DNA of 64,000 nucleotides from Candidatus Omnitrophota bacterium (GTDB lineage Bacteria; Omnitrophota; Gorgyraeia; 2-01-FULL-45-10): positions 69,849 through 133,848 of the forward strand of contig JAPLME010000012.1 in the NCBI GenBank assembly GCA_026387175.1. The letters run 5' to 3'. The notes beneath the pieces are model-generated. The model searched no databases and was not told the origin of the DNA. It saw only the letters and a list, made by a program, of their open reading frames with translations. Shown one piece after another: positions 3,713 to 14,924 of the stretch (positions are counted from its first letter, which is position 1; every line of letters starts with the position of its first letter). Position numbers and translations under genes: made by a program.

Positions 3713-3770
3713 TCCCAAAATTTATGGTATAATCAAAAAAATTGCTTCACAATGACATTTGAATACCCAT

Positions 3771-4727
3771 ATGAAACCCATGAAAAATCAACGTTCCAAA
3801 AAACCCACGATGTCGTTCCCTAGGTATGGAAAATATACGCCGCTCCTCTCAGAGCTGTTTACAAGATTGGGTGCGAACGTCATAATACCTCCTCCCATAA
3901 CAAAACGCACTACGGAGCTGGGAACGCTCTATTCTCCTTCGGAAGTATGCTATCCATTCAAAATCACGCTTGGCACACTGATAGAGGCGTCGGAGCTGGG
4001 CGCCGAGTCTGTCGTCATGGCCAATTCGGAAGGCTGGTGCATTTTACGCTGCTATAACATCGTACAGGCTGAGATCATGAAGGCACATGGCTATAAAGCC
4101 GCGATGGCTCCCATATGTATACGTAAACCTATTAAATTCGTGCGCGACGCTAAACGGCTCATCCCGGGATTATCTGTTTTTAAACTCACAAAGGAGATGT
4201 ATAGGTTTTTTAAAAAAGTGAAAGAGCTCGATAAGATCGAGGGCTCGATTAACAAGAATGCGGATATAAAGATAGGGATAGCGGGCGAGGTGTATGTCTG
4301 CAATGAAAATACGGTCAATATGGATATAGTAAAAAAACTTCAGGCATTAGGCGTCTTTGTGGACAGATGGTTATGTCTTTCCAATAATGTCTCGATGCTT
4401 TTTCAGGACATGTTCGGCGTCAGTAATATTTCTAAATATTCCAGGTTGGCAAAGAAATATTTTCCGGTCCGGATAGGAGGGCATGCCAATGAGAATCTGG
4501 TCAAGCTGATAAAATATGCCGAGGAGGGTTACGACGGCGCGATAATGCTTAAACCGTTCGCGTGTAATCCCGAAACAGTCATCGAGCCGATAGTGGACCG
4601 CATAAGCCGCGATTACGATATGCCGATACTATGCCTTAGCATCGATGAGTCCACCCTGGAGACGCATTTTCAGACCAGAGTCGAATCATTCGTTGACATG
4701 CTTAAGATGAGAAAGGCTTTAATATGA
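3771..4727 (+). CDS. putative partner of CoA-enzyme activase (DUF2229-like / 2-hydroxyacyl-CoA dehydratase-associated family), start uncertain
   Basis: Sequence style YSPSEVCYPFKITLGTLIEA and location directly upstream of, and 4-nt overlapping, a BadF/BadG ATPase. Track start 3759 is a TTG. ATG at 3771, 3780 and 3810 are alternative starts. TATAAT at 3727. Confidence 0.5.
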   Translation: MKPMKNQRSKKPTMSFPRYGKYTPLLSELFTRLGANVIIPPPITKRTTELGTLYSPSEVCYPFKITLGTLIEASELGAESVVMANSEGWCILRCYNIVQAEIMKAHGYKAAMAPICIRKPIKFVRDAKRLIPGLSVFKLTKEMYRFFKKVKELDKIEGSINKNADIKIGIAGEVYVCNENTVNMDIVKKLQALGVFVDRWLCLSNNVSMLFQDMFGVSNISKYSRLAKKYFPVRIGGHANENLVKLIKYAEEGYDGAIMLKPFACNPETVIEPIVDRISRDYDMPILCLSIDESTLETHFQTRVESFVDMLKMRKALI

Positions 4728-5683
4728 AATTCTTCCTCGGAGTGGATATAGGGTCTGTCTCCGTCAAGATGGCTGTATTGAATGAAGAGAAGGCCCTGAT
4801 GGGAAGCGTATATGTGGAAACTGCCGGCGCGCCCCTTGAAGCTCTGTGCAAAGCGGCGGCAGAGATAAAAAATACTGTTGAAAAACATTCGGCGCAAATA
4901 TGCGGCATAGGTATCACCGGAAGCAGCAGAAAGCTGGCAGCGCTTGTTCTGGGGGCGGACGTAATAAAAAATGAGGTTACTGCGCAAACCGTGGCCGCTT
5001 TACATTACGATCCGCGCATAGCTACCGTAATAGAAATCGGCGGGCAAGATTCAAAGGTTATACTCCTTAAGGACGGCATACCTACCTGGCATAACCTTAA
5101 TACGTTATGCGCGGCGGGCACCGGATCGTTCCTTGCCTCGCAGGCAATACGGCTTGGCATCCCGATAGAGGAATTTGGAAACTACGCCCTTCGATCGACA
5201 GTCAGGGTAAACATCGCTTCGAAGTGCACAGTATTCTCGGAAAGCGATATGATACATAAGGCGGCGCTTGGCTGTCGAAAGGAAGATATAATAAACGGCC
5301 TTTGCGAAGGCCTGGCGCGAAATTTTATAAATAATGTGGCGCGCAACAGAGAAATGCCCGATCCCGTTATTTTCGTCGGAGGCGTAGCGTCGAATATAGG
5401 TGTAGTTCGCGCATTTGAGGCGGCGCTCAAGACCAGGATAACCGTACCTGAAGAACACCGGATCACCGGATGCGTAGCTATGGCGCTTCTGGCTCTAAGG
5501 AGCGGCATAAAAGAATCGGCGTTTAAAGGCTTTGGCCTGCTCGACAAAGAAGTAAGGGCCGGCTTCTTTTTATGCGAAGACTGCCCAAACCAGTGTGAGA
5601 TAACCAGGGTTAATGTTGAAGAGAAAAGCGTCGGCTGTTTTGGCTCCAGATGCGGGAAACATAACAGCGCGCTTTCAGCATAA
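4724..5683 (+). CDS. BadF/BadG/BcrA/BcrD-type ATPase (CoA-substrate-specific enzyme activase-like) with C-terminal Cys cluster
   Basis: MKFFLGVDIGSVSVKMAVL (actin-fold phosphate-1 motif) and GIGITGSSRK. C-terminal CEDCPNQCEI...CFGSRCG. Confidence 0.8.
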   Translation: MKFFLGVDIGSVSVKMAVLNEEKALMGSVYVETAGAPLEALCKAAAEIKNTVEKHSAQICGIGITGSSRKLAALVLGADVIKNEVTAQTVAALHYDPRIATVIEIGGQDSKVILLKDGIPTWHNLNTLCAAGTGSFLASQAIRLGIPIEEFGNYALRSTVRVNIASKCTVFSESDMIHKAALGCRKEDIINGLCEGLARNFINNVARNREMPDPVIFVGGVASNIGVVRAFEAALKTRITVPEEHRITGCVAMALLALRSGIKESAFKGFGLLDKEVRAGFFLCEDCPNQCEITRVNVEEKSVGCFGSRCGKHNSALSA

Positions 5684-5724
5684 ACTGGTTTATGGTATAA
5701 TTATAAAAATTACCGAGGTGAGAA

Positions 5725-6066
5725 ATGCTCAGAGGCTGTATAGTTATTTTAATCCTGACGTTCGGAATATTGATATTTTCTCCCTCCTGCCCTAAAGATA
5801 GTCTTGCCCAACAAAACATACGCGCCGTGGAAGGCAAGATATACGCGATAGATACATTCAAATCCACCGTTACCGTGAAGTCACTCATGCTCGCTCCGGT
5901 TATCAAATATAGCGATGTCACTCTCTTCGTCGGGCCCAATACGAAAATAAAGCGTTTAGGCAGTGACATAAGCATTTTCGATCTTACTATGGGTTGCCCT
6001 GTAAATGTCCAATATGCCGATAAAGTTGGCACCCCGGAAGCATTATCGATCACGGTTACTAAATGA
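5725..6066 (+). CDS. secreted/lipoprotein-like hypothetical protein
   Basis: SD gaggtgag. Hydrophobic N-terminus LILTFGILIFSPSCP (lipobox-like Cys). Confidence 0.5.
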   Translation: MLRGCIVILILTFGILIFSPSCPKDSLAQQNIRAVEGKIYAIDTFKSTVTVKSLMLAPVIKYSDVTLFVGPNTKIKRLGSDISIFDLTMGCPVNVQYADKVGTPEALSITVTK

Positions 6067-6083
6067 TGATAAGGAGATACCAG

Positions 6084-6959
6084 ATGAATAGAAGCGTGTT
6101 TATTGCCGGGGCGGTTCTTTTTGCCGGCTTAATTTTTGCCGGCTTATCCTGTGCCGCGGACGCCCCGAAACTGACCGCAGGTCATGTTGAGCGGGTGGTA
6201 GCGGATGCCGTTAAGCTCCTCCAGGAGAAAGGGGAAAGCGCTTTTCCTGAATTCAAGAAAGAAGTGGAGAGGTGGGAAGTAGGCGATACATATATATTCG
6301 TTCTCGACACAGACGGAAATATGGTCATTCATCCGGACCCCGCGCTTGAAGGAAAGAATCAGATAAATCTTAAAGATATGGTCGGCAGGCCGATAACAAA
6401 GATGTTTATAGAAACGACTTCCGATAAAGACGGCGTGGGCTGGGTGCATTATATGTGGCCGAGGCCCAACGGGATATTCCCCACATGGAAGAGCACTTTC
6501 GTCAGAAGGGTGACCGCGCCGTCCGGGAAGACGTATATTGTCGGCTGCGGCATATATAACATGAAAATGGAAGAGGAATTTATCGTGGACGAAGTGAACG
6601 ATGCGGCGGCGCTTATCGAGCAAAAAGGAGGGGCTGCGTTCGACGTATTGCGCGATAAGACAGGGCCGTTCGTTTTCTTCGATACATACATATTTGTGGA
6701 TGCGCCGGACGGCACAGAGCTGGTGAACGGCGGCTTTCCCGGTATCGAGGGGAAGAATATCATGGATTTTAAAGACGTTAACGGCAAATACCTGGTGCGC
6801 GATTATATAAACCTGGCGCTTAAAGACGGTGAGGGATGGATAAAATATTTCTGGCCAAAACCGGGAAGCGACGTGCCTTCTGAAAAGCGCACCTATGTGA
6901 AAAAAGTAAAGTACGGCGATGAGACATTTATAGTAGGATGCGGCGCGTATCTGGAATAA
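6084..6959 (+). CDS. periplasmic tandem single-Cache (sCache_2-like) domain protein
   Basis: AAGGAGA SD then ATG 6084 and a signal peptide. Two internally repeated ~130-aa units (…GDTYIFVLDTDGNMVIHP… and …FDTYIFVDAPDGTELVNG…, each ending …IVGCGIY / IVGCGAY) are typical of Cache_2. Confidence 0.7.
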   Translation: MNRSVFIAGAVLFAGLIFAGLSCAADAPKLTAGHVERVVADAVKLLQEKGESAFPEFKKEVERWEVGDTYIFVLDTDGNMVIHPDPALEGKNQINLKDMVGRPITKMFIETTSDKDGVGWVHYMWPRPNGIFPTWKSTFVRRVTAPSGKTYIVGCGIYNMKMEEEFIVDEVNDAAALIEQKGGAAFDVLRDKTGPFVFFDTYIFVDAPDGTELVNGGFPGIEGKNIMDFKDVNGKYLVRDYINLALKDGEGWIKYFWPKPGSDVPSEKRTYVKKVKYGDETFIVGCGAYLE

Positions 6960-6966
6960 ATGGAAG

Positions 6967-7368
6967 ATGATAAAAAAACTCATAAGGACGATCGCTGTTA
7001 TAGAATTGTCAATAGGCGCCTTCACCATATGCGGTATCACGATATACGGGTTACTTGCGATATCGAGAAAGCCGCTTAATGTATTTATATTCGTTTTCCT
7101 GGCAGGCGTGGCATCCAGCGTTATCGGGATGGGGCTTTTCAATTATAAACACTGGGCGAGAAATTTATTAATCTTCTTCTCCGGATATATCATTCTTATC
7201 AAGATAATGATTTTCGCAGATCTACTACACTTAAATGGGGAGATAATGACATTTCCTCCGGCCAGTTTAAAAAATTACATCTCGATAGCATACCATGGTT
7301 TCATAGTGCTGTTTCTCACCAGACAGACCGTCAAAGAGTGCTTTATTAAAAATGAGCTCCGCAATTAA
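6967..7368 (+). CDS. small integral membrane protein, unknown function
   Basis: 3-4 hydrophobic helices. Overlaps the next gene by 17 nt. Confidence 0.45.
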   Translation: MIKKLIRTIAVIELSIGAFTICGITIYGLLAISRKPLNVFIFVFLAGVASSVIGMGLFNYKHWARNLLIFFSGYIILIKIMIFADLLHLNGEIMTFPPASLKNYISIAYHGFIVLFLTRQTVKECFIKNELRN

Positions 7369-8086
7369 TAAATTTGCTTTAGAACGCGCTTTGTCGAAAA
7401 TGGGCGTGGCTTCTCGCAGTCAGACCCGGGAATGGATCCTGGAGGGGCGGCTAAAAGTTAATGGAAAGACGGTTAAAGACCCTCTTCGCATTGTTCTTCC
7501 CGGGAAAGATAAAATTACTTTGGACGGAAAGGAAGCGCGGAAAAAGACCCGGGAGACGATCCTGCTGTATAAGCCGAGATCCGTTGTGACGACTCGGTCT
7601 GATGAGCATGGCCGCCGCACGATTTTTAATCTGCTACCCGAAGAGCTGCAATCTCTTCATCCGGTGGGCCGTCTGGATATGGCTACTACCGGGCTGCTAC
7701 TGTTGACCAATGATACGAAGCTTTCAGCTTATTTGGCCGACCCCGCCAATGCTATTGTGCGCGTCTATGCGGTATCCGTTAAGGGTAAGGTCACGGACGC
7801 GGAAGTCCGTAAACTTATCGAGGGTGTTTGGGACCGCGGCGAATTTTTAAAACCGTTAAAGCTAACCCTGCGTAAATCCAGCAATAGAGAGTCCCATCTG
7901 ATCATGGAATTAACTGAAGGGAAAAACAGAGAGATCCGAAGGATATTTGAATCTATCGGCCATGAGGTGACGAGTCTTAAGCGCATTGCCTTCGGTGCCC
8001 TGAAGCTTGGAGACATGCAGCCGGGTGAGTTTCGCCACCTGACGCCGGAAGAGATCAGGGCATTCTTAATTTATATTGATTTATAA
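7352..8086 (+). CDS. RsuA/RluB-family rRNA pseudouridine synthase (S4 domain + PseudoU_synth_2)
   Basis: S4-like N-terminus (LERALSKMGVASRSQ...GRLKVNGK). Catalytic region HPVGRLDMATTGLLLLTNDTKL with the conserved Asp. Confidence 0.9.
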   Translation: MSSAINKFALERALSKMGVASRSQTREWILEGRLKVNGKTVKDPLRIVLPGKDKITLDGKEARKKTRETILLYKPRSVVTTRSDEHGRRTIFNLLPEELQSLHPVGRLDMATTGLLLLTNDTKLSAYLADPANAIVRVYAVSVKGKVTDAEVRKLIEGVWDRGEFLKPLKLTLRKSSNRESHLIMELTEGKNREIRRIFESIGHEVTSLKRIAFGALKLGDMQPGEFRHLTPEEIRAFLIYIDL

Positions 8087-8109
8087 TGAGCACAATGTTA
8101 TAACTAATG

Positions 8110-8265
8110 AAGTTTTAGCATCCCGGAACACGGCGTAAATCCGTGGCGGACCCACCGCTGTAATCGGTACGATGCGCATAGCAATAATAGCTAGCCACTT
8201 TTAACTAATGTTAGAGGGAAGGCATGCGCATCTGGAAAGAACCGTAAGCCAGAAGACCTGCTAAA
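8110..8265 (+). promoter_or_regulatory. cobalamin (B12) riboswitch aptamer
   Basis: CCCGGAACACGGCGTAAATCCGTGGCGGACCCACCGCTGTAA ... TAGCCACTT ... GAGGGAAGGC ... AAGCCAGAAGACCTGC matches the RF00174 cores (GGUGAAAUCC / CNGCAACUGUAA / GCCACUG / GGGAAGGC / B12-box AGYCAGGAGACCUGCC) in the correct order. Confidence 0.8.
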
Positions 8266-8290
8266 GCTGTAGAAAACCGAATCCAACGGC

Positions 8291-8345
8291 AAAGGATTTT
8301 GGCGAAGCGTATAGACGCTTTGTCAGAGTCCTTTTTTATTTTTAT
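8291..8345 (+). terminator. intrinsic terminator (probable riboswitch expression platform)
   Basis: AAAGGA..GGCGAAGCGT-atag-ACGCTTTGTC..TCCTTTTTTATTTTTAT: a 10-bp stem (2 G-U pairs) inside an outer AAAGGA/TCCTTT stem, followed by a U-tract. Confidence 0.55.
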
Positions 8346-8362
8346 ATTCAATAAACCAAAAA

Positions 8363-8415
8363 GGCCGATGTCAGAGACATCGGCACTTAGCCTGTAATAC
8401 GGCTGAATAAACTTG
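8363..8415 (+). repeat. copy 1 of a conserved ~53-nt two-hairpin leader motif (recurs at 32619-32722)
   Basis: ggCCGATGTCagaGACATCGGcacttAGCCtgtaatacGGCTgaataaacttg, followed by GGAGGA SD and ATG 8424. Confidence 0.75.
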
Positions 8416-8423
8416 GAGGACGT

Positions 8424-8558
8424 ATGAATAGGAACAGAAAAAGCAATAAGGGCGGGACGAAAAAAAATAGAAATGATATTATCGCGAGCCGGAAAACTTG
8501 CACGGCCGACGGGACAGGTTTGTCGCATTACGTTCTGATGGACAAGAAGACCAAATAA
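8424..8558 (+). CDS. small basic peptide (44 aa), candidate RiPP precursor; below the ORF-track size cutoff
   Basis: ATG 8424 is 7 nt after GGAGGA. Translation MNRNRKSNKGGTKKNRNDIIASRKTCTADGTGLSHYVLMDKKTK, TAA at 8556. Only 4 nt from the radical SAM gene. Confidence 0.45.
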   Translation: MNRNRKSNKGGTKKNRNDIIASRKTCTADGTGLSHYVLMDKKTK

Positions 8559-8562
8559 GGTA

Positions 8563-9930
8563 ATGGATCGTTTTGTCAATTCAGGGGACGGCCCGGCATT
8601 CCAGCCGATAGAGATAGGCCATCCGCGTTATATTGGGCTCATAGATCCCGATACCGCATTTTGGTCATTGGTTGAACGCGGTAAACTATCTGATATTATG
8701 CGTGACAGTGAACTGTTGAGGGCCTACCGTAAGAAAAGGGAAAGTTTTCGCGCGGAGATGGATCGTCTCCGTTTTGGTCTGAGACCGTCCGCGGTATATT
8801 TTAATATTACCGAAAGATGTAATCTTAATTGCCGCTATTGTTATATTCCCGAACATATGCGCCGCAATGGCAGGCACATGTCCGAAAAGACCGTGATCGA
8901 TGCCCTTCAATTATTGAAAGCATACTTTAAAACGTCGGCCGGTAATGCCTCATTACCTAAAATAATATTTCACGGAGCCGAACCTCTGCTGAATAAAAAG
9001 GCATTGAGAGCCGCTATCGAAAAGTTTAGCGGGGACTTTATGTTTGGCATACAAACGAACACCGTTTTATTGGATGCCGAAATGGTTTCGTTTTTGAAAT
9101 CCAACAAAGTAAGCATCGGTATCTCACTTGATGGCCCGACGGCCGAAACAGTTAACAGGACCAGGGCGAGCTGGTCCGGCGAAGGTGTATTTCACAGCGT
9201 TATAGAGGCGATGAAGTTGCTCAGGGGTTATGATGCATGGAGCGCGATATGCACGATCACAACTGAAAATGTGCGCTCCCTTCCCGGTCTTACAGCTTTT
9301 TTACATAAGAACGAAGTTCCCACCTGTCTTTTAAATGTTGTTCGATGTACTCTTCCTTCCGCTCGAAAAATTAAACCTGCGGATGCGCTTGCCGCGCGAT
9401 ATTTTATTAAAGCTCTCGAGACGAGCCATAGACTTTATAAAGAGAGCGGCCGCAAGCTTGTGGTGGCTAACTTTGCCAATATACTGATAAGCATCCTTGC
9501 CCCAACAGCTCGCAGATTGATGTGCGATATCTCGCCGTGTGGGGGAGGAAGAAGCTTTTTTGCCTTAGTGCCAAACGGCGACATATTTCCCTGCAGCGAA
9601 TTTATCGGGTTGAAACGTTTTAAAGGCGGCAATATTTTTAAGGATAGTGTAAAAAATATTTTAAAAAGTGATCCATTTAAGCTGGTTACAGAAAGAAAAG
9701 TAGAGAAGATCGAACCATGCCGCCGATGCGCTATCCGGCATTTTTGCGGCTCGCCCTGTCCCGCCGAAGCGTATGAAATGAACGGCGGAATGAATAAAAC
9801 GGGTTCGTTCTGCGAATTCTATGAAGAACAGACCCGTTTTGCATTTCGGCTCATAGCGGATAACAGGCATGAAGCTTTTCTATGGGATGGCTGGGATAGG
9901 GGCACCAAAGAAATCTTTAATGTCACATAG
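8563..9930 (+). CDS. radical SAM enzyme with C-terminal SPASM/twitch domain (anSME-like peptide-modifying family)
   Basis: NITERCNLNCRYCY (CX3CX2C) at ~aa 85. C-terminal CDISPCGGG...CSEF...CRRCAIRHFCGSPCPAEAY (CX2CX5CX3C). ~85-aa N-terminal extension could be a peptide-recognition domain. Confidence 0.85.
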   Translation: MDRFVNSGDGPAFQPIEIGHPRYIGLIDPDTAFWSLVERGKLSDIMRDSELLRAYRKKRESFRAEMDRLRFGLRPSAVYFNITERCNLNCRYCYIPEHMRRNGRHMSEKTVIDALQLLKAYFKTSAGNASLPKIIFHGAEPLLNKKALRAAIEKFSGDFMFGIQTNTVLLDAEMVSFLKSNKVSIGISLDGPTAETVNRTRASWSGEGVFHSVIEAMKLLRGYDAWSAICTITTENVRSLPGLTAFLHKNEVPTCLLNVVRCTLPSARKIKPADALAARYFIKALETSHRLYKESGRKLVVANFANILISILAPTARRLMCDISPCGGGRSFFALVPNGDIFPCSEFIGLKRFKGGNIFKDSVKNILKSDPFKLVTERKVEKIEPCRRCAIRHFCGSPCPAEAYEMNGGMNKTGSFCEFYEEQTRFAFRLIADNRHEAFLWDGWDRGTKEIFNVT

Positions 9931-9995
9931 CCGCATTAAGCATAACCCATCGAAATTTATCTTGCATATTTTGAAAATTGGCAGTATTCTTGGGA

Positions 9996-10457
9996 ATGAT
10001 GAGTCACTTCTACTTACTAAACAAAAAAGGCTTTGCCCTTCTTGAGGTTTTAATAGGCGTCATCATTTTAAGTGTAGGCCTATTTACCGTAGGGGCTGTT
10101 TTTTTCGGAGAGTTTGGCACTATTAATAAGCTGAGCGAAACGCTGGTGGCTACCTTAGCGGTTCAGGAAGAAATCGATAAAATCAGGGCCCTGCCTTTTA
10201 ACAATATCGCCGCGTATACATGTTCAGGATATAACGCGGCGGATCCTATGTGCCCCTCCGGCTTTAAATATCTGGCAAATAAAAGCCCCGTCTGCACAGT
10301 ATTGGTTGACGGATGCGCAAACGCGGTTGATAATTTTAGCGGCGACGCAAATATTAAAAAAGTTTCAGTTACCGCGACCTGGAATTCTGCCTCAGGGAGA
10401 ATATTGTCAAAAAGCCTGGTAACTCTGATAACTTATCAGGGCATCGATAAGTGGTGA
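9996..10457 (+). CDS. prepilin-type N-terminal cleavage/methylation domain protein (pseudopilin/minor pilin)
   Basis: LNKKGFALLEVLIGVIILSV = G|FxLLE class III signal. Track start 9978 is a TTG. ATG at 9996. Confidence 0.7.
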   Translation: MMSHFYLLNKKGFALLEVLIGVIILSVGLFTVGAVFFGEFGTINKLSETLVATLAVQEEIDKIRALPFNNIAAYTCSGYNAADPMCPSGFKYLANKSPVCTVLVDGCANAVDNFSGDANIKKVSVTATWNSASGRILSKSLVTLITYQGIDKW

Positions 10458-10470
10458 AAACGAGGAAAAT

Positions 10471-11154
10471 TTGAATAAACGAAAGAGCGGATTTACAATG
10501 GTTGAGATTCAGATAGCGGCATTTATCGCTTCTATCATATTATTAGCCGCTGTTTCTTTGTACACGATGTATTGGCGGACTTTCGTAACGGACAGCGCTT
10601 ATCTGGACGTTTATTCAAGTTCAAGAATCGCGGTGGACCACATGGTAAGAGATATCAGGTGCGCGGCGCAAGTAGTGACGAACTATGGTTCTTATACGAC
10701 CACCGACAATACCATCGTTCTTCAGGTCCCTTCTATAGATAACTCGAACCCACCGATCACTATAAACTCTATAACCTCAGACACAAATCTTTATTACGAT
10801 TATATAATTTATACATTGATCTATAATAATAATCTGCAAAGCTACGATCTGTACAGAATTGTCCAAATAGACGGGAAGTTCACTACCGCCGGAGACTCGT
10901 ATTATCATAAAAACGGCAGGGTAAATGAAAATCGCGCCGTAGCCCACCATTGCGGCACTAATTCCGGAAACTTACTGACTTTCAGCTCCGGAAGCGTCGG
11001 TGGCACAACGTTATCACATGTTACATATCTGTCGGATGTCAATACCATAGGTATCTCTTTGCCGATTAATGAAAAAATGCTTTCTTTAAGCGGATCGGGA
11101 ACGAACACGGCGCAGATGATCCCGACAGCGGTAGTCAGGATGCGTAATAAATAA
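10471..11154 (+). CDS. prepilin-type N-terminal cleavage/methylation domain protein (pseudopilin/minor pilin)
   Basis: KRKSGFTMVEIQIAAFIASIILLAA. TTG start preceded by GAGGA. Confidence 0.7.
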   Translation: MNKRKSGFTMVEIQIAAFIASIILLAAVSLYTMYWRTFVTDSAYLDVYSSSRIAVDHMVRDIRCAAQVVTNYGSYTTTDNTIVLQVPSIDNSNPPITINSITSDTNLYYDYIIYTLIYNNNLQSYDLYRIVQIDGKFTTAGDSYYHKNGRVNENRAVAHHCGTNSGNLLTFSSGSVGGTTLSHVTYLSDVNTIGISLPINEKMLSLSGSGTNTAQMIPTAVVRMRNK

Positions 11155-11156
11155 AT

Positions 11157-12431
11157 ATGAATTCCAATAAACATAAAAATCCGGACGGCTTTATATTAGT
11201 TACCTCTCTTTTAATAGTAGCCATATTGCTTATACTGGTATCAGCCTGCATGGCCAGGCTTGTCACCGAATATGGGCTTGCGGCAAAATTTTATAATTCG
11301 ACCGCTGCCTTCGATTTGGGAGAAGTAGGATTAGAGCGGGCAATTTGGCATTACTTAAATAATAATCTTACCGGCTGGACTCCTTCGCCGGATCCGTCCC
11401 ACCCAGGTAATACACTATACACCCTTCCTCACCAGTTTCTTAAGGCGCATGTCGGAAGCGTCTATCTTAACATAGGGGAATACGACGCAAGCATTTCAAT
11501 TTCCGCCGATGGGACGGCTGCCGTTATCTCCGCTAATGGGTATGTGCCAAATTACTCATCATATAGCGCAAAAAGAACGTTGGGGGCTACATACAAAAAA
11601 TGGGGCGCTTTTACACACGCTGTCTCCAGCCTTCATAATATTACGATGAGCGGTCAGGCCAAAGCGGATAGCTATGATTCTTCGAAAGGGGCCTATAATT
11701 GTATATTATCGGGTGGGTCCAGAAATATCGGACAAAAAGGCAGTATGGCGTCTAACGGTTCGATAACCCTGAGCGGAGAAGTATATATCAATGGAGACGC
11801 GACTCCAGGATCCGGCCATCCATTTCCGGCCAGCCCCTCGCCTTCGACTTATATATCGGGTAAATACGGAACCATGTCGACCCCGATAACAGTTGATGCG
11901 GCTATGACTTCAGCCCTGGCTTCGACCATTGCCGCTACAAAAACAAGCAATAGCAACAGCGGTATCACCATTACTCATAACGGCACTACAACGCCTTACA
12001 CCGGAGGAAACAATCTTTCCGTAAGCGGCCAGGATGTAATGACAATACCCGGCGGCACATATTATTTTACAGCGATAAGCACGAGCGGCCAGGCGCAGAT
12101 TAATGTTACAGGGCCCTCAGTTATATATGTGGATGGCGGCAGTATAAATATTTCCGGGCAGGGAATTGTAAATAGCGGGCAGCCGAAAGATATGCAAATC
12201 TACTCTACAGGTTCTACTGTCAGTTTATCGGGTCAGGCCGCTGTTACCGGAGCCATATATGCCCCTTCCGCTACTATTACCCTGAGCGGACAGGAGAATT
12301 TTTATGGCTCTATTTTTTGCGGCTCCGATGTCGATAGCGGCCAAGCGGTGGTACATTATGATACTAGCCTGTCAAGCGTGACGCCATCTTTTGCGACGAA
12401 TGGAGTGACTTCCTGGGCGGATATAAAATAA
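11157..12431 (+). CDS. large PilX-like minor pilin / pseudopilin with Ser/Thr/Gly-rich beta-rich C-terminal region
   Basis: N-terminus NPDGFILVTSLLIVAILLILVSAC (PilX-N-like, no Glu5). 424 aa, S/T/G-rich. Confidence 0.5.
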   Translation: MNSNKHKNPDGFILVTSLLIVAILLILVSACMARLVTEYGLAAKFYNSTAAFDLGEVGLERAIWHYLNNNLTGWTPSPDPSHPGNTLYTLPHQFLKAHVGSVYLNIGEYDASISISADGTAAVISANGYVPNYSSYSAKRTLGATYKKWGAFTHAVSSLHNITMSGQAKADSYDSSKGAYNCILSGGSRNIGQKGSMASNGSITLSGEVYINGDATPGSGHPFPASPSPSTYISGKYGTMSTPITVDAAMTSALASTIAATKTSNSNSGITITHNGTTTPYTGGNNLSVSGQDVMTIPGGTYYFTAISTSGQAQINVTGPSVIYVDGGSINISGQGIVNSGQPKDMQIYSTGSTVSLSGQAAVTGAIYAPSATITLSGQENFYGSIFCGSDVDSGQAVVHYDTSLSSVTPSFATNGVTSWADIK

Positions 12432-12622
12432 GCTGATATTGCGCAATAAACATGATGATTCTCGATGCGCATTATTCTCTTTACAGGGGAAGAGCTCCAA
12501 GATACAATAAAACAAATTTAATATACCGCACTATGTTGTGCGGGTAGATACGTAATGAACGCAGGCGTTCACTTTGGCAAAGCAGATAAGCCAGATTGAG
12601 CGCTATTTTTTTGTCCAATTTA

Positions 12623-12648
12623 TATTCAATTGTGTACACAATTGAATA
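12623..12648. promoter_or_regulatory. 26-bp perfect palindrome 17 nt upstream of amt start (candidate operator)
   Basis: TATTCAATTGTGT|ACACAATTGAATA, followed by AAGGGAGGG SD and ATG 12665. Confidence 0.4.
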
Positions 12649-12664
12649 ACCACAAAGGGAGGGT

Positions 12665-13903
12665 ATGATGATAAATTCCGGTGACACGGCGTGGGTCCTG
12701 ATAGCTACCGCGCTCGTAATGCTTATGACTATCCCGGGCCTCGCGCTTTTTTACGGCGGCCTGGTGCGAAGGAAGAATGTCCTTGCTACCATGATGCAGT
12801 CTTTTTTTGTATTGTGCCTAATAAGCTTGCAATGGATATTGTTTGGGTATAGTCTATCCTTTGGGCCCGACAAATGGCACCTGATAGGGAACCTGTCATG
12901 GTTTGGCCTGAACGGTGTTGGCGCGAGCCCGAATGCCACTTATGCCGCGACCATTCCCCACATTCTCTTTATGGCATTTCAAATGATGTTCGCGGTAATC
13001 ACCCCCGGGCTTATAACAGGCGCATTTGCCGAAAGAATGAAATTTTCCACATATGTGGTCTTCACTTTATTGTGGGCAACCCTTGTATATAATCCTGTGT
13101 GCCACTGGATCTGGGGCGCCGGCGGATGGCTGGGCAAGATGGGCGTAATGGATTTTGCCGGAGGGCTTGTCGTGCATGTTACAGCGGGTTTTTCGGCGCT
13201 TGTATGCGCGCTGTATATGGGATCGAGAAGAGGGTATGGTAAGGAGCCCATGCCGCCGCATAATCTCCCATTGACCATTATAGGCGCCGGGCTTCTATGG
13301 TTCGGCTGGTTCGGATTTAATGCCGGAAGCGCGCTGGGAGCAAATGCTGTCGCGGCGACAACGTTCGTTGTAACCAATACAGCCGCCGCTACCGCCGCGC
13401 TTACCTGGATGCTGATCGAATGGAAAATTACCGGAAAACCCACCCTCCTCGGTGGAGCTACCGGCGCCGTAGCGGGGCTGGCGACCATAACTCCCGCGTC
13501 CGGCTTTGTGAGTCCGATTTCGGCTATTATCATCGGCATCGCGGCCTCCCTGATATGCTATTTTTCAGTCGCCGTGGTGAAGCTTAAATTCTCTTACGAT
13601 GACTCACTTGACGCGTTTGGCGTGCATGGCATCGGAGGGCTGGTCGGCGTTATCTTTACGGGAGCCCTTGCTCAGAAGATATTAAACCCCGCGGGCAACA
13701 ACGGCCTGTTCTTTGGGAACGTCCCACAGCTTGGCATTCAGGCATTCGGCTCATTAATTGTTATCATCTACTCTGTCGGCATGACATTCGCGATGCTTAA
13801 AATACTCGATCTCACCATGGGGCTCAGGGTGAGCGACGAGGAAGAGGTGATAGGCCTTGATATCACTCAGCACGAAGAGAGCGCATACACATTATTAGAC
13901 TAA
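12665..13903 (+). CDS. amt: ammonium transporter (Amt family)
   Basis: N-terminus [36 protein letters not shown] is the Amt signature. 11 TM. Followed by a PII gene. Confidence 0.9.
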
Positions 13904-13913
13904 GGAGAAAAAT

Positions 13914-14255
13914 ATGAAATTGATAATAGCCGTAATTCAGCCGCATAAGCTTGAAGATGTCATGCAGGAACTTGACAAGAGCGAGATCCATCTAAGGACC
14001 GTTTCCAATGTTCTGGGGTGCGGGAGGCAGAAGGGCCGGACGGAAGTATACCGCGGGAGAAAAGAGACGGGAAACCTTCTTAAAAAGGTCCGCATCGAGA
14101 TCGCCGTTAACGAAAAATTTGTCGAACCGGCTATAGCGGCGATAACGCGCGGCGCCAGGACCGGTAATATAGGCGACGGTAAGATATTTGTGCTGGATCT
14201 TGAGGAATGCGTAAGGATACGAACGAATGAAAAAGGCAGCGAAGCCATAGGGTAG
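13914..14255 (+). CDS. glnK: nitrogen regulatory protein P-II (GlnK, amt-linked)
   Basis: [16 protein letters not shown]...VLGCGRQKG...YRG...[11 protein letters not shown]; 113 aa; classic amt-glnK pairing. Confidence 0.9.
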
Positions 14256-14261
14256 AACCAT

Positions 14262-14924
14262 ATGCGCACTTTTGTTATAGGCGATATTCATGGTGCCTAT
14301 CAAGCGTTTTTGCAATGCTTGAAAAAGGCGGATTTCAACAAGAATAAGGATCATTTGATCTGTCTTGGCGATGTCTGCGATCGCGGGCCGCATGTTAAAG
14401 AATGCATCGATGAATTATTGAGCATCCAAAAGCGCACTTATCTTTTAGGTAATCATGATGCGTGGGCCCTGGACTGGGCCATTAAAGGTATATCTGTCAG
14501 GGAATGGCTGGAGCAGGGCGGCTCTGATACGATAGCTTCATATAAAGACGGTGGAATGCCTGTGGAACATATTCGGTTACTTGCCCAGGCGCCGTTATGG
14601 TTATTAGACAAAAACCGCCTGTTCCTTCATGCCGGGTTTGATGTAGATAATGGGCTGGAAGGCACCCCAAAGAATGTGATACTTTGGGATCGGGAGCTCC
14701 TCTGCAGGGCAAAATTATTACATCAGTCCTGCCCGGAATTTAAATTTGGCGGTTACGATGAAATATTTGTCGGGCACACCCCGACGTTGATATTCAATAA
14801 AGACACCCCTCAGAAATTCTGCAATGTGTGGGCTATCGATACCGGCGCCGTATGGAGCGGTAAATTAACGATAATGGATGTCGATACGAAAGAATACTGG
14901 CAATCAACCCCGGCAGCATTGTGA
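14262..14924 (+). CDS. metallophosphoesterase, PPP-family Ser/Thr phosphatase / ApaH-like
   Basis: GDIHG, GDVCDRGP, GNHD motifs in canonical order. Confidence 0.75.
   Translation: MRTFVIGDIHGAYQAFLQCLKKADFNKNKDHLICLGDVCDRGPHVKECIDELLSIQKRTYLLGNHDAWALDWAIKGISVREWLEQGGSDTIASYKDGGMPVEHIRLLAQAPLWLLDKNRLFLHAGFDVDNGLEGTPKNVILWDRELLCRAKLLHQSCPEFKFGGYDEIFVGHTPTLIFNKDTPQKFCNVWAIDTGAVWSGKLTIMDVDTKEYWQSTPAAL

Follow-up and report, generated by a model that had tools for sequence, protein, structure and literature searches.

We analysed a 64-kb stretch of DNA (hereafter the window) from a Candidatus Omnitrophota bacterium (contig JAPLME010000012.1) and found that a cobalamin riboswitch precedes a short open reading frame (ORF), cbpA, and the gene following it, cbpB, which encodes a radical S-adenosylmethionine (SAM) enzyme with a SPASM region (8099–9930, + strand). 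Together they very probably constitute a coupled two-gene operon, under riboswitch control, for a peptide and an enzyme that would modify it. The riboswitch is the most informative feature of the locus and was absent from the initial annotation, which had proposed an unannotated precursor–maturase pair. The locus is a CbpA/CbpB cassette, belonging to a known family that was defined by comparative genomics and is already annotated. Proteins identical to the 44-aa and 455-aa products are deposited at NCBI as CbpA and CbpB, on a 251-kb contig of a Candidatus Omnitrophica metagenome-assembled genome (MAG). As these exact sequences are already so named, the pair is neither unannotated nor new; 'unannotated' was true only of the ORF track from which the initial annotation was made.

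Both products matched their curated equivalog models above the NCBIfam cut-offs, which supports the proposed pairing of precursor and maturase. CbpA scored 57.8 bits (E = 5e−16) against TIGR04164 (cobo_pep, 'modified peptide precursor CbpA'; cut-off 35 bits), with residues 20–43 aligned to positions 2–25 of the 25-position profile. CbpB scored 660.6 bits against TIGR04163 (rSAM_cobopep, 'peptide-modifying radical SAM enzyme CbpB'; cut-off 375 bits) and residues 13–440 covered the entire profile (1–428 of 428). One genome per GTDB species was scanned for relatives of CbpB. At least 595 stretches matched, the best 80 of which were retained as the locus sample. These 80 loci span more than ten phyla and came from Omnitrophota, Planctomycetota, Syntrophales/Smithella and other Desulfobacterota, Verrucomicrobiota, Kiritimatiellia, Nitrospirota, Nitrospinota, Myxococcota, Dehalococcoidia, Firmicutes MAGs, Armatimonadota and Alphaproteobacteria.

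The aptamer in the window begins 13 nt past the stop codon of the pseudouridine synthase gene upstream and aligned with the full length of the Rfam model (positions 1–189). Between the aptamer and cbpA lies an intrinsic terminator, and the region 8270–8440 has a predicted folding energy of −57.7 kcal/mol (z = −6.5 versus shuffled sequences). The terminator hairpin and its T-run could be aligned with those of two Omnitrophota relatives (L001 and L002). A hidden Markov model (HMM) made from 15 aptamers was run on the fetched loci and placed a same-strand riboswitch directly 5′ of cbpA in 75 loci with a pattern-detected cbpA. It also found one 5′ of cbpB in Blastochloris sulfoviridis (L077), where the pattern search had missed a variant cbpA. 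In total, 79 fetched loci could be judged and a riboswitch stood ahead of cbpA in 76 of them, as it does in the window; one locus cut at a contig edge (L014) is outside this count. A separate Rfam check confirmed the riboswitch in 16/20 sampled loci (two cut at a contig edge). The stand-alone arrangement of riboswitch, cbpA and cbpB was also seen in isolates or isolate-like assemblies, namely at a Paramagnetospirillum magneticum-type locus and in Sedimenticola. Between aptamer and cbpA, 69/76 riboswitch-bearing sequences (75 fetched loci and the window) had a strong hairpin and then a U-run; those failing this criterion were mostly from high-GC genomes, where so simple a criterion may miss terminators. 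Cobalamin riboswitches are established OFF switches, and on this behaviour cbpAB is predicted to be transcribed only under cobamide scarcity. Cobamide bound to the aptamer would allow the terminator at 8291–8347 to form and transcription would halt before cbpA; when B12 is scarce, a bicistronic cbpA–cbpB mRNA would be made.

The peptide gene runs from ATG 8424 to TAA 8556–8558 and its product is MNRNRKSNKGGTKKNRNDIIASRKTCTADGTGLSHYVLMDKKTK. The initial annotation had the ORF and its translation exactly right, and likewise the 4 nt separating its stop (8558) from the cbpB start (ATG 8563), but placed GGAGGA 7 nt before the ATG where the gap is 3 nt. Residues 1–18 of CbpA are variable and Lys/Asn-rich, and residues 18–44 form a conserved unit, DIIASRKTCTADGTGLSHYVLMDKKTK. 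In the family at large, the N-terminus likewise varies in length and sequence and is mostly Lys-rich. The consensus of the unit reads V-I-A-x-R-K-x-C-x-A-x-G-T-G-L-S-H-Y-I-L-M-D-K-K, with a core (vIAxRKxCxAxGtGLSH[Y/F]ILmD) that is nearly invariant across the 80 loci; the window CbpA has IIASRKTCTADGTGLSHYVL for IAxRKxCxAxGxGLSH[Y/F][I/V]L. The R, C, G, G, L, S and H of the unit were invariant in all 80 loci. The pattern used to search for cbpA included G.GLSH[Y/F] and left out the Arg and Cys, so that the invariance of these two is independent of the search. Each unit contains one cysteine, and Cys+2 was occupied by Ala, Pro and Thr in 66, 7 and 6 of the 80 sequences, respectively. Column entropies over the 80 cbpA cores were 0.49 bits at first, 0.36 bits at second and 1.29 bits at third codon positions, and invariant residues were written with several synonymous codons (Leu, CTN and TTG; Ser, TCN and AGC; Arg, CGN and AGG). 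This greatest variation at third positions, together with the synonymous codons at invariant residues, shows that cbpA is coding.

Conservation of the small ORF, which the initial annotation had named as the test of its proposal, extended to every locus. cbpA was found directly 5′ of cbpB in 80/80 loci (79 by pattern search, and B. sulfoviridis with Phe for Tyr), and the cbpA stop and cbpB start overlapped or lay within ~20 nt of each other in most. Overlaps of 1 nt (35 loci) and 4 nt (9 loci) point to translational coupling, suggested earlier for the window pair, as a trait of the family. A profile of 44 CbpA sequences retrieved 2606 protein clusters at E ≤ 1, and its top matches (P0139–P0152) had two full tandem units within a single precursor, as in Sedimenticola hydrogenitrophicus (P0142). 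A tandem-unit CbpA was also present in locus L046 (7759–7956), with VIAxRKxCxxxGxGLSHYIL... occurring twice in a single ORF. Because the duplication takes in the entire unit, VIAxRK included, the recognition element is probably located inside the unit and not in the variable N-terminus, and the tandem copies suggest that the unit is a self-contained substrate module. The B. sulfoviridis CbpA (7669–7956 of L077) has Phe in place of the otherwise invariant Tyr (GTGLSHFVLMD) and the phenolic hydroxyl is therefore probably not essential. The Tyr had also been considered as the possible origin of a phenolic lower ligand (p-cresol), a candidate that was dropped on account of the same Phe.

CbpB is strongly conserved, with 59–66% identity across phyla and a mean column identity of 74% in an alignment of 22 homologues. 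The cysteines of the CX3CX2C motif and of a C-terminal SPASM CX2CX5CX3C motif, both reported at the outset, were located and are invariant in these homologues (Table 1). The SPASM set comprises C321, C326, C344, C386-x2-C389-x5-C395-x3-C399 and C417, and Pfam placed SPASM at residues 326–389. The next-best NCBIfam families were peptide maturases (PapB, DynA, HxsB, QhpD and the SCIFF maturase), led by PapB (NF047865; 147.6 bits, cut-off 340) and then DynA (131 versus 450). Scores were similarly low for the SCIFF maturase (TIGR03974; 109.1 versus 425), StsB (75.8 versus 625) and the anaerobic sulfatase maturase anSME (TIGR03942, 124.1 versus 349.45; PRK13758, 76 versus 441). An AlphaFold model built on the same alignment (predicted local distance difference test, pLDDT, 78.5; predicted template modelling score, pTM, 0.82) was compared with known structures using Foldseek. 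The best match was CteB (5WHY, 5WGG), a sactionine-forming enzyme, over nearly the whole chain (E = 2e−16, ~460 columns, template modelling score ~0.65–0.70). The runner-up, also over its full length, was TigE (8VPO), which PMC10878394 appears to describe as a cyclopropylglycine synthase. anSME (4K38) aligned over ~390 columns, and the radical SAM peptide maturases ChlB (9GMC), SkfB and SuiB matched more weakly. A sequence-profile search of the PDB returned CteB (1e−28) and anSME (6e−26), in both cases from the radical SAM core onward only.

Table 1 Features of the cbpAB cassette in the window.
Feature	Position	Strand	Basis
Cobalamin riboswitch aptamer (RF00174)	8099–8279	+	Rfam, 71.6 bits (gathering score 31.5), E = 1e−15
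Expression platform, intrinsic terminator	8291–8347	+	Terminator scan; 20-bp hairpin (8291–8334), then T-run
Shine–Dalgarno sequence of cbpA, GGAGGA	8415–8420	+	Sequence reading; 3 nt (cgt) to ATG
cbpA	8424–8558	+	44 aa; TIGR04164 match, 80/80 loci, codon-position entropy
cbpB	8563–9930	+	455 aa; TIGR04163, Pfam Radical_SAM and SPASM
CbpB N-terminal domain, residues 1 to ~76	8563–8790	+	Predicted beta-beta-beta-alpha-alpha
Radical SAM cluster motif, C86-x3-C90-x2-C93	8818–8841	+	Translation; invariant in 22 homologues
SPASM region, eight cysteines	9523–9813	+	Translation; invariant in 22 homologues

Ahead of the radical SAM core, CbpB has an N-terminal extension, for which the initial annotation gave ~85 aa and a possible likeness to a recognition element (RRE) of peptides that are made on the ribosome and modified after translation (RiPPs). 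The extension is present but measures ~75 aa, and neither the sequence nor the fold of this region (examined as residues 1–82) gave a significant RRE or PqqD match. In the model it comprises three strands (residues 14–16, 23–28 and 33–38) and two helices (39–48 and 50–71), with G19, H20, T31-A32-F33-W34, E65 and L69-R70-F71 invariant. PqqD was not among the Pfam matches of 16 homologous N-terminal domains, even at E ≤ 10, and a PDB sequence-profile search with the domain gave no match. Foldseek with the separately modelled domain returned nothing significant, the top non-significant entries being the TbiB1 RRE and CteB. The domain occupies the same place as the RRE of CteB and TigE and may bind the peptide, a candidate role.

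We also compared the genes flanking cbpAB. All-against-all clustering of 959 ORFs from the 80 loci, with cob genes confirmed by NCBIfam, revealed no widely conserved neighbour. The recurrent neighbours were late cobamide genes only, along with scattered components of ATP-binding cassette (ABC) and resistance-nodulation-division (RND) systems. At least one of CobT, CobS, CobC, CobU, CbiB, a CobD–CobQ fusion and CobO was encoded in the flanks of 20/80 loci. In six loci (from Syntrophales, Dehalococcoidales, Kiritimatiellaeota and one bacterium MAG of unassigned phylum) cobT followed cbpB on the same strand after 17–164 nt, and one operon (L074) contained cobS and cobC besides cobT. When the gene next downstream was assigned to Pfam families in 67 loci, DBI_PRT (CobT) came up six times and no other family more than twice. 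Back-to-back divergent riboswitches occurred in L003–L006, L013, L017, L062 and L066, among them several Planctomycetota loci. The second lay ~100–250 nt upstream of the cbpA riboswitch, on the minus strand; one of the pair leads into cbpAB and the other into a cob operon (cobC, cobU, cobT, cobS, cobD/Q, cbiB, cobO). No conserved peptidase, dedicated exporter or immunity gene was found near cbpAB across the surveyed loci, nor a conserved leader cleavage motif in CbpA.

CbpB would hold one SAM-cleaving [4Fe-4S] cluster and, given the eight SPASM cysteines, probably two auxiliary clusters. The 5′-deoxyadenosyl radical that it would generate could abstract hydrogen from the CbpA block R-K-x-C-x-A-x-G-t-G-L-S-H-[Y/F]-I-L. 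We infer a single modification, at either the sole cysteine or the His-Tyr pair. The preferred chemistry would be one intramolecular thioether, from the cysteine to a residue within GTGLSHY, and this is the first guess because the closest characterised relatives (CteB, PapB and QhpD) form thioethers. Alternatively, the cysteine may be oxidised to formylglycine. The modification motif of sulfatases is C-x-[P/A]-x-R, which the C-x-[A/P]-x-G of CbpA recalls, and eight SPASM cysteines are found in anSME too. A carbon cross-link between His and Tyr (or His and an aromatic residue), as in dynobactin, is a further option; DynA was the second-best non-cognate model, and such a link would be compatible with the Tyr-to-Phe exchange in Blastochloris.

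The product would most likely have an intracellular role in responding to B12 shortage, through cobamide handling, salvage or assembly, rather than being a secreted antibiotic. This is argued by the lack of any peptidase, exporter or immunity gene travelling with cbpAB, by the near-frozen state of peptide core and enzyme across phyla, and by recurrent neighbours being limited to genes of the nucleotide loop and of salvage, cobT above all. Riboswitch control, near-invariance and the missing export and processing genes together suggest a conserved B12-linked cellular role, and the cob neighbours, cobT in particular, favour cobamide handling or assembly. Tentatively, CbpAB may be a peptide component of the B12 economy, whose modified His/Tyr/Cys peptide binds or processes corrinoids or cobalt under cobamide starvation. 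It could then serve as an intracellular corrinoid carrier to CobT/CobS, or as source or scaffold of a moiety related to the lower ligand. In that case, cobamide salvage or assembly would for the first time involve a RiPP-type molecule. It is rather less probable, and on the whole unlikely, that the product instead replaces B12, as a peptide-derived cofactor or a modified small protein enabling a B12-independent route. Such a substitute would share the regulatory logic of metE or nrdDG behind B12 riboswitches, documented for NrdDG (PMC545781), and would fit a family in which predicted repression by B12 is the constant feature and most cassettes (60/80) stand apart from cobamide genes. The extreme conservation of the core also recalls cofactor-type peptides such as PqqA and MftA. 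However, no candidate partner enzyme is conserved beside the cassette, and the neighbours that do recur are genes of cobamide assembly and salvage, with cobT in the same operon in six loci.

A conventional secreted antimicrobial RiPP of the sactipeptide or ranthipeptide type is improbable, even though CteB, which forms thioethers, is the closest structural match, the ranthipeptide maturase PapB has the highest-scoring non-cognate HMM, and MacB/LolD-like ABC ATPases or RND adaptor proteins occur in the flanks of ~10 loci. The PapB and SCIFF maturase scores are far under cut-off, each peptide unit has a single cysteine, and the core hardly changes between Omnitrophota and Alphaproteobacteria, unlike that of bacteriocins. 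No conserved cleavage motif, peptidase, exporter or immunity gene accompanies the pair, and B12 control has no obvious rationale for an antibiotic. Still less credit can be given to CbpB being an anSME that acts on a sulfatase protein, with the small ORF incidental. anSME is a good structural and sequence relative of CbpB, the eight-cysteine SPASM pattern is common to the two, and the cysteine motif of CbpA resembles that of sulfatases. Both anSME models nevertheless scored far below their cut-offs. No sulfatase occurred among the ten Pfam-scanned ORFs flanking the cassette in the window, and neither a sulfatase nor another protein substrate was a conserved neighbour. The small ORF, by contrast, was present at all 80 loci, its stop often overlapping the cbpB start. 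The initial annotation had named a protein substrate such as a sulfatase as a refutation of its proposal, and these results did not refute it. Least probable of all, to the point of being negligible, is an untranslated 44-codon ORF that arose by chance or is a piece of the riboswitch expression platform. It is short and sits within a leader region rich in RNA structure. Against this, it lies 3′ of the terminator with its own GGAGGA and matched TIGR04164 at E = 5e−16. Third codon positions have about threefold the entropy of the first two, invariant residues are encoded by alternative synonymous codons, and the entire peptide unit is tandemly duplicated in other genomes.

Several points weigh against the main reading, a B12-controlled operon for a peptide and its modifying enzyme. 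tblastn with CobT, CobS, CobC, CobU, CbiB, CobD/Q and CobO detected no cobamide genes in the whole window, and 60/80 loci were without a nearby cobamide gene, so that the functional link to B12 rests mainly on the riboswitch. Neither the aptamer HMM nor Rfam at gathering score gave a riboswitch 5′ of cbpA–cbpB in L061, L063, L071 and L076; the upstream sequence is intact in L061, L071 and L076, and that of L063 was unchecked by eye. B12 riboswitches also repress B12-independent stand-ins for B12-dependent enzymes (NrdDG, for instance; PMC545781), and this would be a role of another kind. That CbpB modifies CbpA we infer from synteny and family annotation, and an RRE is not recognisable in the N-terminal domain. 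CteB binds its substrate cysteine at an open iron site. CbpB has eight conserved SPASM cysteines like anSME and unlike CteB, which weakens the thioether guess. Finally, a full-text literature search, with most subscription journals outside its coverage, found no publication on CbpA/CbpB; PMC10878165 and PMC545781 do not mention the cassette.

For the window itself this adds little, as the genes are correctly named in public records and TIGRFAMs/NCBIfam has listed the family for years. The family merits experiment, being found in at least 595 species-level genomes and in more than ten phyla within the 80 loci, with an almost frozen core and enzyme, a near-universal B12 riboswitch and no recurrent neighbours other than cobamide nucleotide-loop and salvage genes. 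Such a pattern speaks for a B12-related housekeeping function and against an antibiotic. Cultured carriers exist, including Paramagnetospirillum magneticum, Blastochloris sulfoviridis, Fundidesulfovibrio putealis and Sedimenticola hydrogenitrophicus.

A number of further features were recorded around the cassette. Between the terminator and the ribosome-binding site of cbpA, the window has ~75 nt (8348–8414) that are lacking in L001 and L002. They contain a perfect 9-bp hairpin at 8364–8384 (GCCGATGTC-aga-GACATCGGC), which is terminator-like when read on the minus strand, and a second small hairpin. In L071 and L076 a divergent ABC-transporter ATPase takes the place of the riboswitch. L001, on the same Omnitrophota contig as its cbpAB, has a group I intron match (RF00028; 7475–7738, + strand; 62.6 bits versus 50). 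The ten flanking ORFs scanned with Pfam (3759–8086 and 9978–14924) include genes for a Cache-domain protein, a small membrane protein and an RsuA/RluB-type pseudouridine synthase upstream, and three pilin-like proteins, an ammonium transporter and a phosphoesterase downstream. The pilin-like genes (9978–12431, + strand) are consecutive and directly 3′ of cbpB, two with N-terminal methylation motifs and one with DUF7305. No terminator is evident after cbpB, and pilin-like genes are not conserved beside cbpAB elsewhere. An adjacent pair at 3759–5683 (+ strand) resembles a 2-hydroxyacyl-CoA dehydratase-type component (HGD-D/DUF2229) and a BadF/BcrA-type ATPase activator. A tblastn search of the window with an ABC ATPase query gave no match. 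One ORF of at least 6945 codons (43165–64000, + strand) continues past the window end and looks like the gene of a giant protein; the ORF list does not show it, as ORFs reaching the window end are left out there.

The window cassette differs in nothing essential from the CbpA/CbpB family, with which it shares above-cut-off matches of both proteins (CbpB over the full profile), gene order, coupling and the upstream cobalamin riboswitch. Departures of the Omnitrophota version from the family are a longer, Asn/Lys/Arg-rich CbpA N-terminus, Val for Ile after the Tyr (SHYVL), a CbpB N-terminus ~10–18 aa shorter, and the extra ~75 nt with its 9-bp hairpin ahead of the ribosome-binding site. Like the CteB/SCIFF maturase, PapB and QhpD, CbpB combines radical SAM and SPASM regions with an additional N-terminal domain and a small peptide encoded adjacently, although its HMM scores are well under the cut-off of each of these families. 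Sactipeptide and ranthipeptide systems have Cys-rich precursors with several thioether bridges, whereas CbpA has one cysteine. In contrast to their synthases, CbpB has all eight SPASM cysteines and an N-terminal domain that does not resemble a known RRE, and cbpAB is riboswitch-controlled and free of export and protease genes. With anSME (4K36–4K39), CbpB shares the core fold and a similar Cys-x-Ala/Pro-x substrate motif, and the spacing of its eight cysteines parallels that of the auxiliary-cluster cysteines in these structures. However, anSME has no N-terminal domain and aligned over ~390 columns, compared with ~460 for CteB; the substrate here would be a 44-aa peptide with C-x-A-x-G, lacking the Arg of the sulfatase motif.

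The PqqA/PqqE and MftA/MftC systems likewise pair a tiny precursor of almost invariant core with a dedicated, adjacent radical SAM/SPASM enzyme, in a wide and patchy distribution. They differ from cbpAB, for which no separate or fused PqqD-like chaperone was detected, no downstream tailoring or protease genes are conserved, and the modification site would not be at the extreme C-terminus. In the bza operon, genes for anaerobic synthesis of benzimidazole lower ligands stand beside cobT behind a B12 riboswitch. BzaA, BzaB and BzaF are ThiC-like and unrelated to CbpA/CbpB, and most cbpAB cassettes stand alone. Nonetheless, the six loci in which a B12 riboswitch is followed by cbpA–cbpB and then cobT follow the same operon logic.

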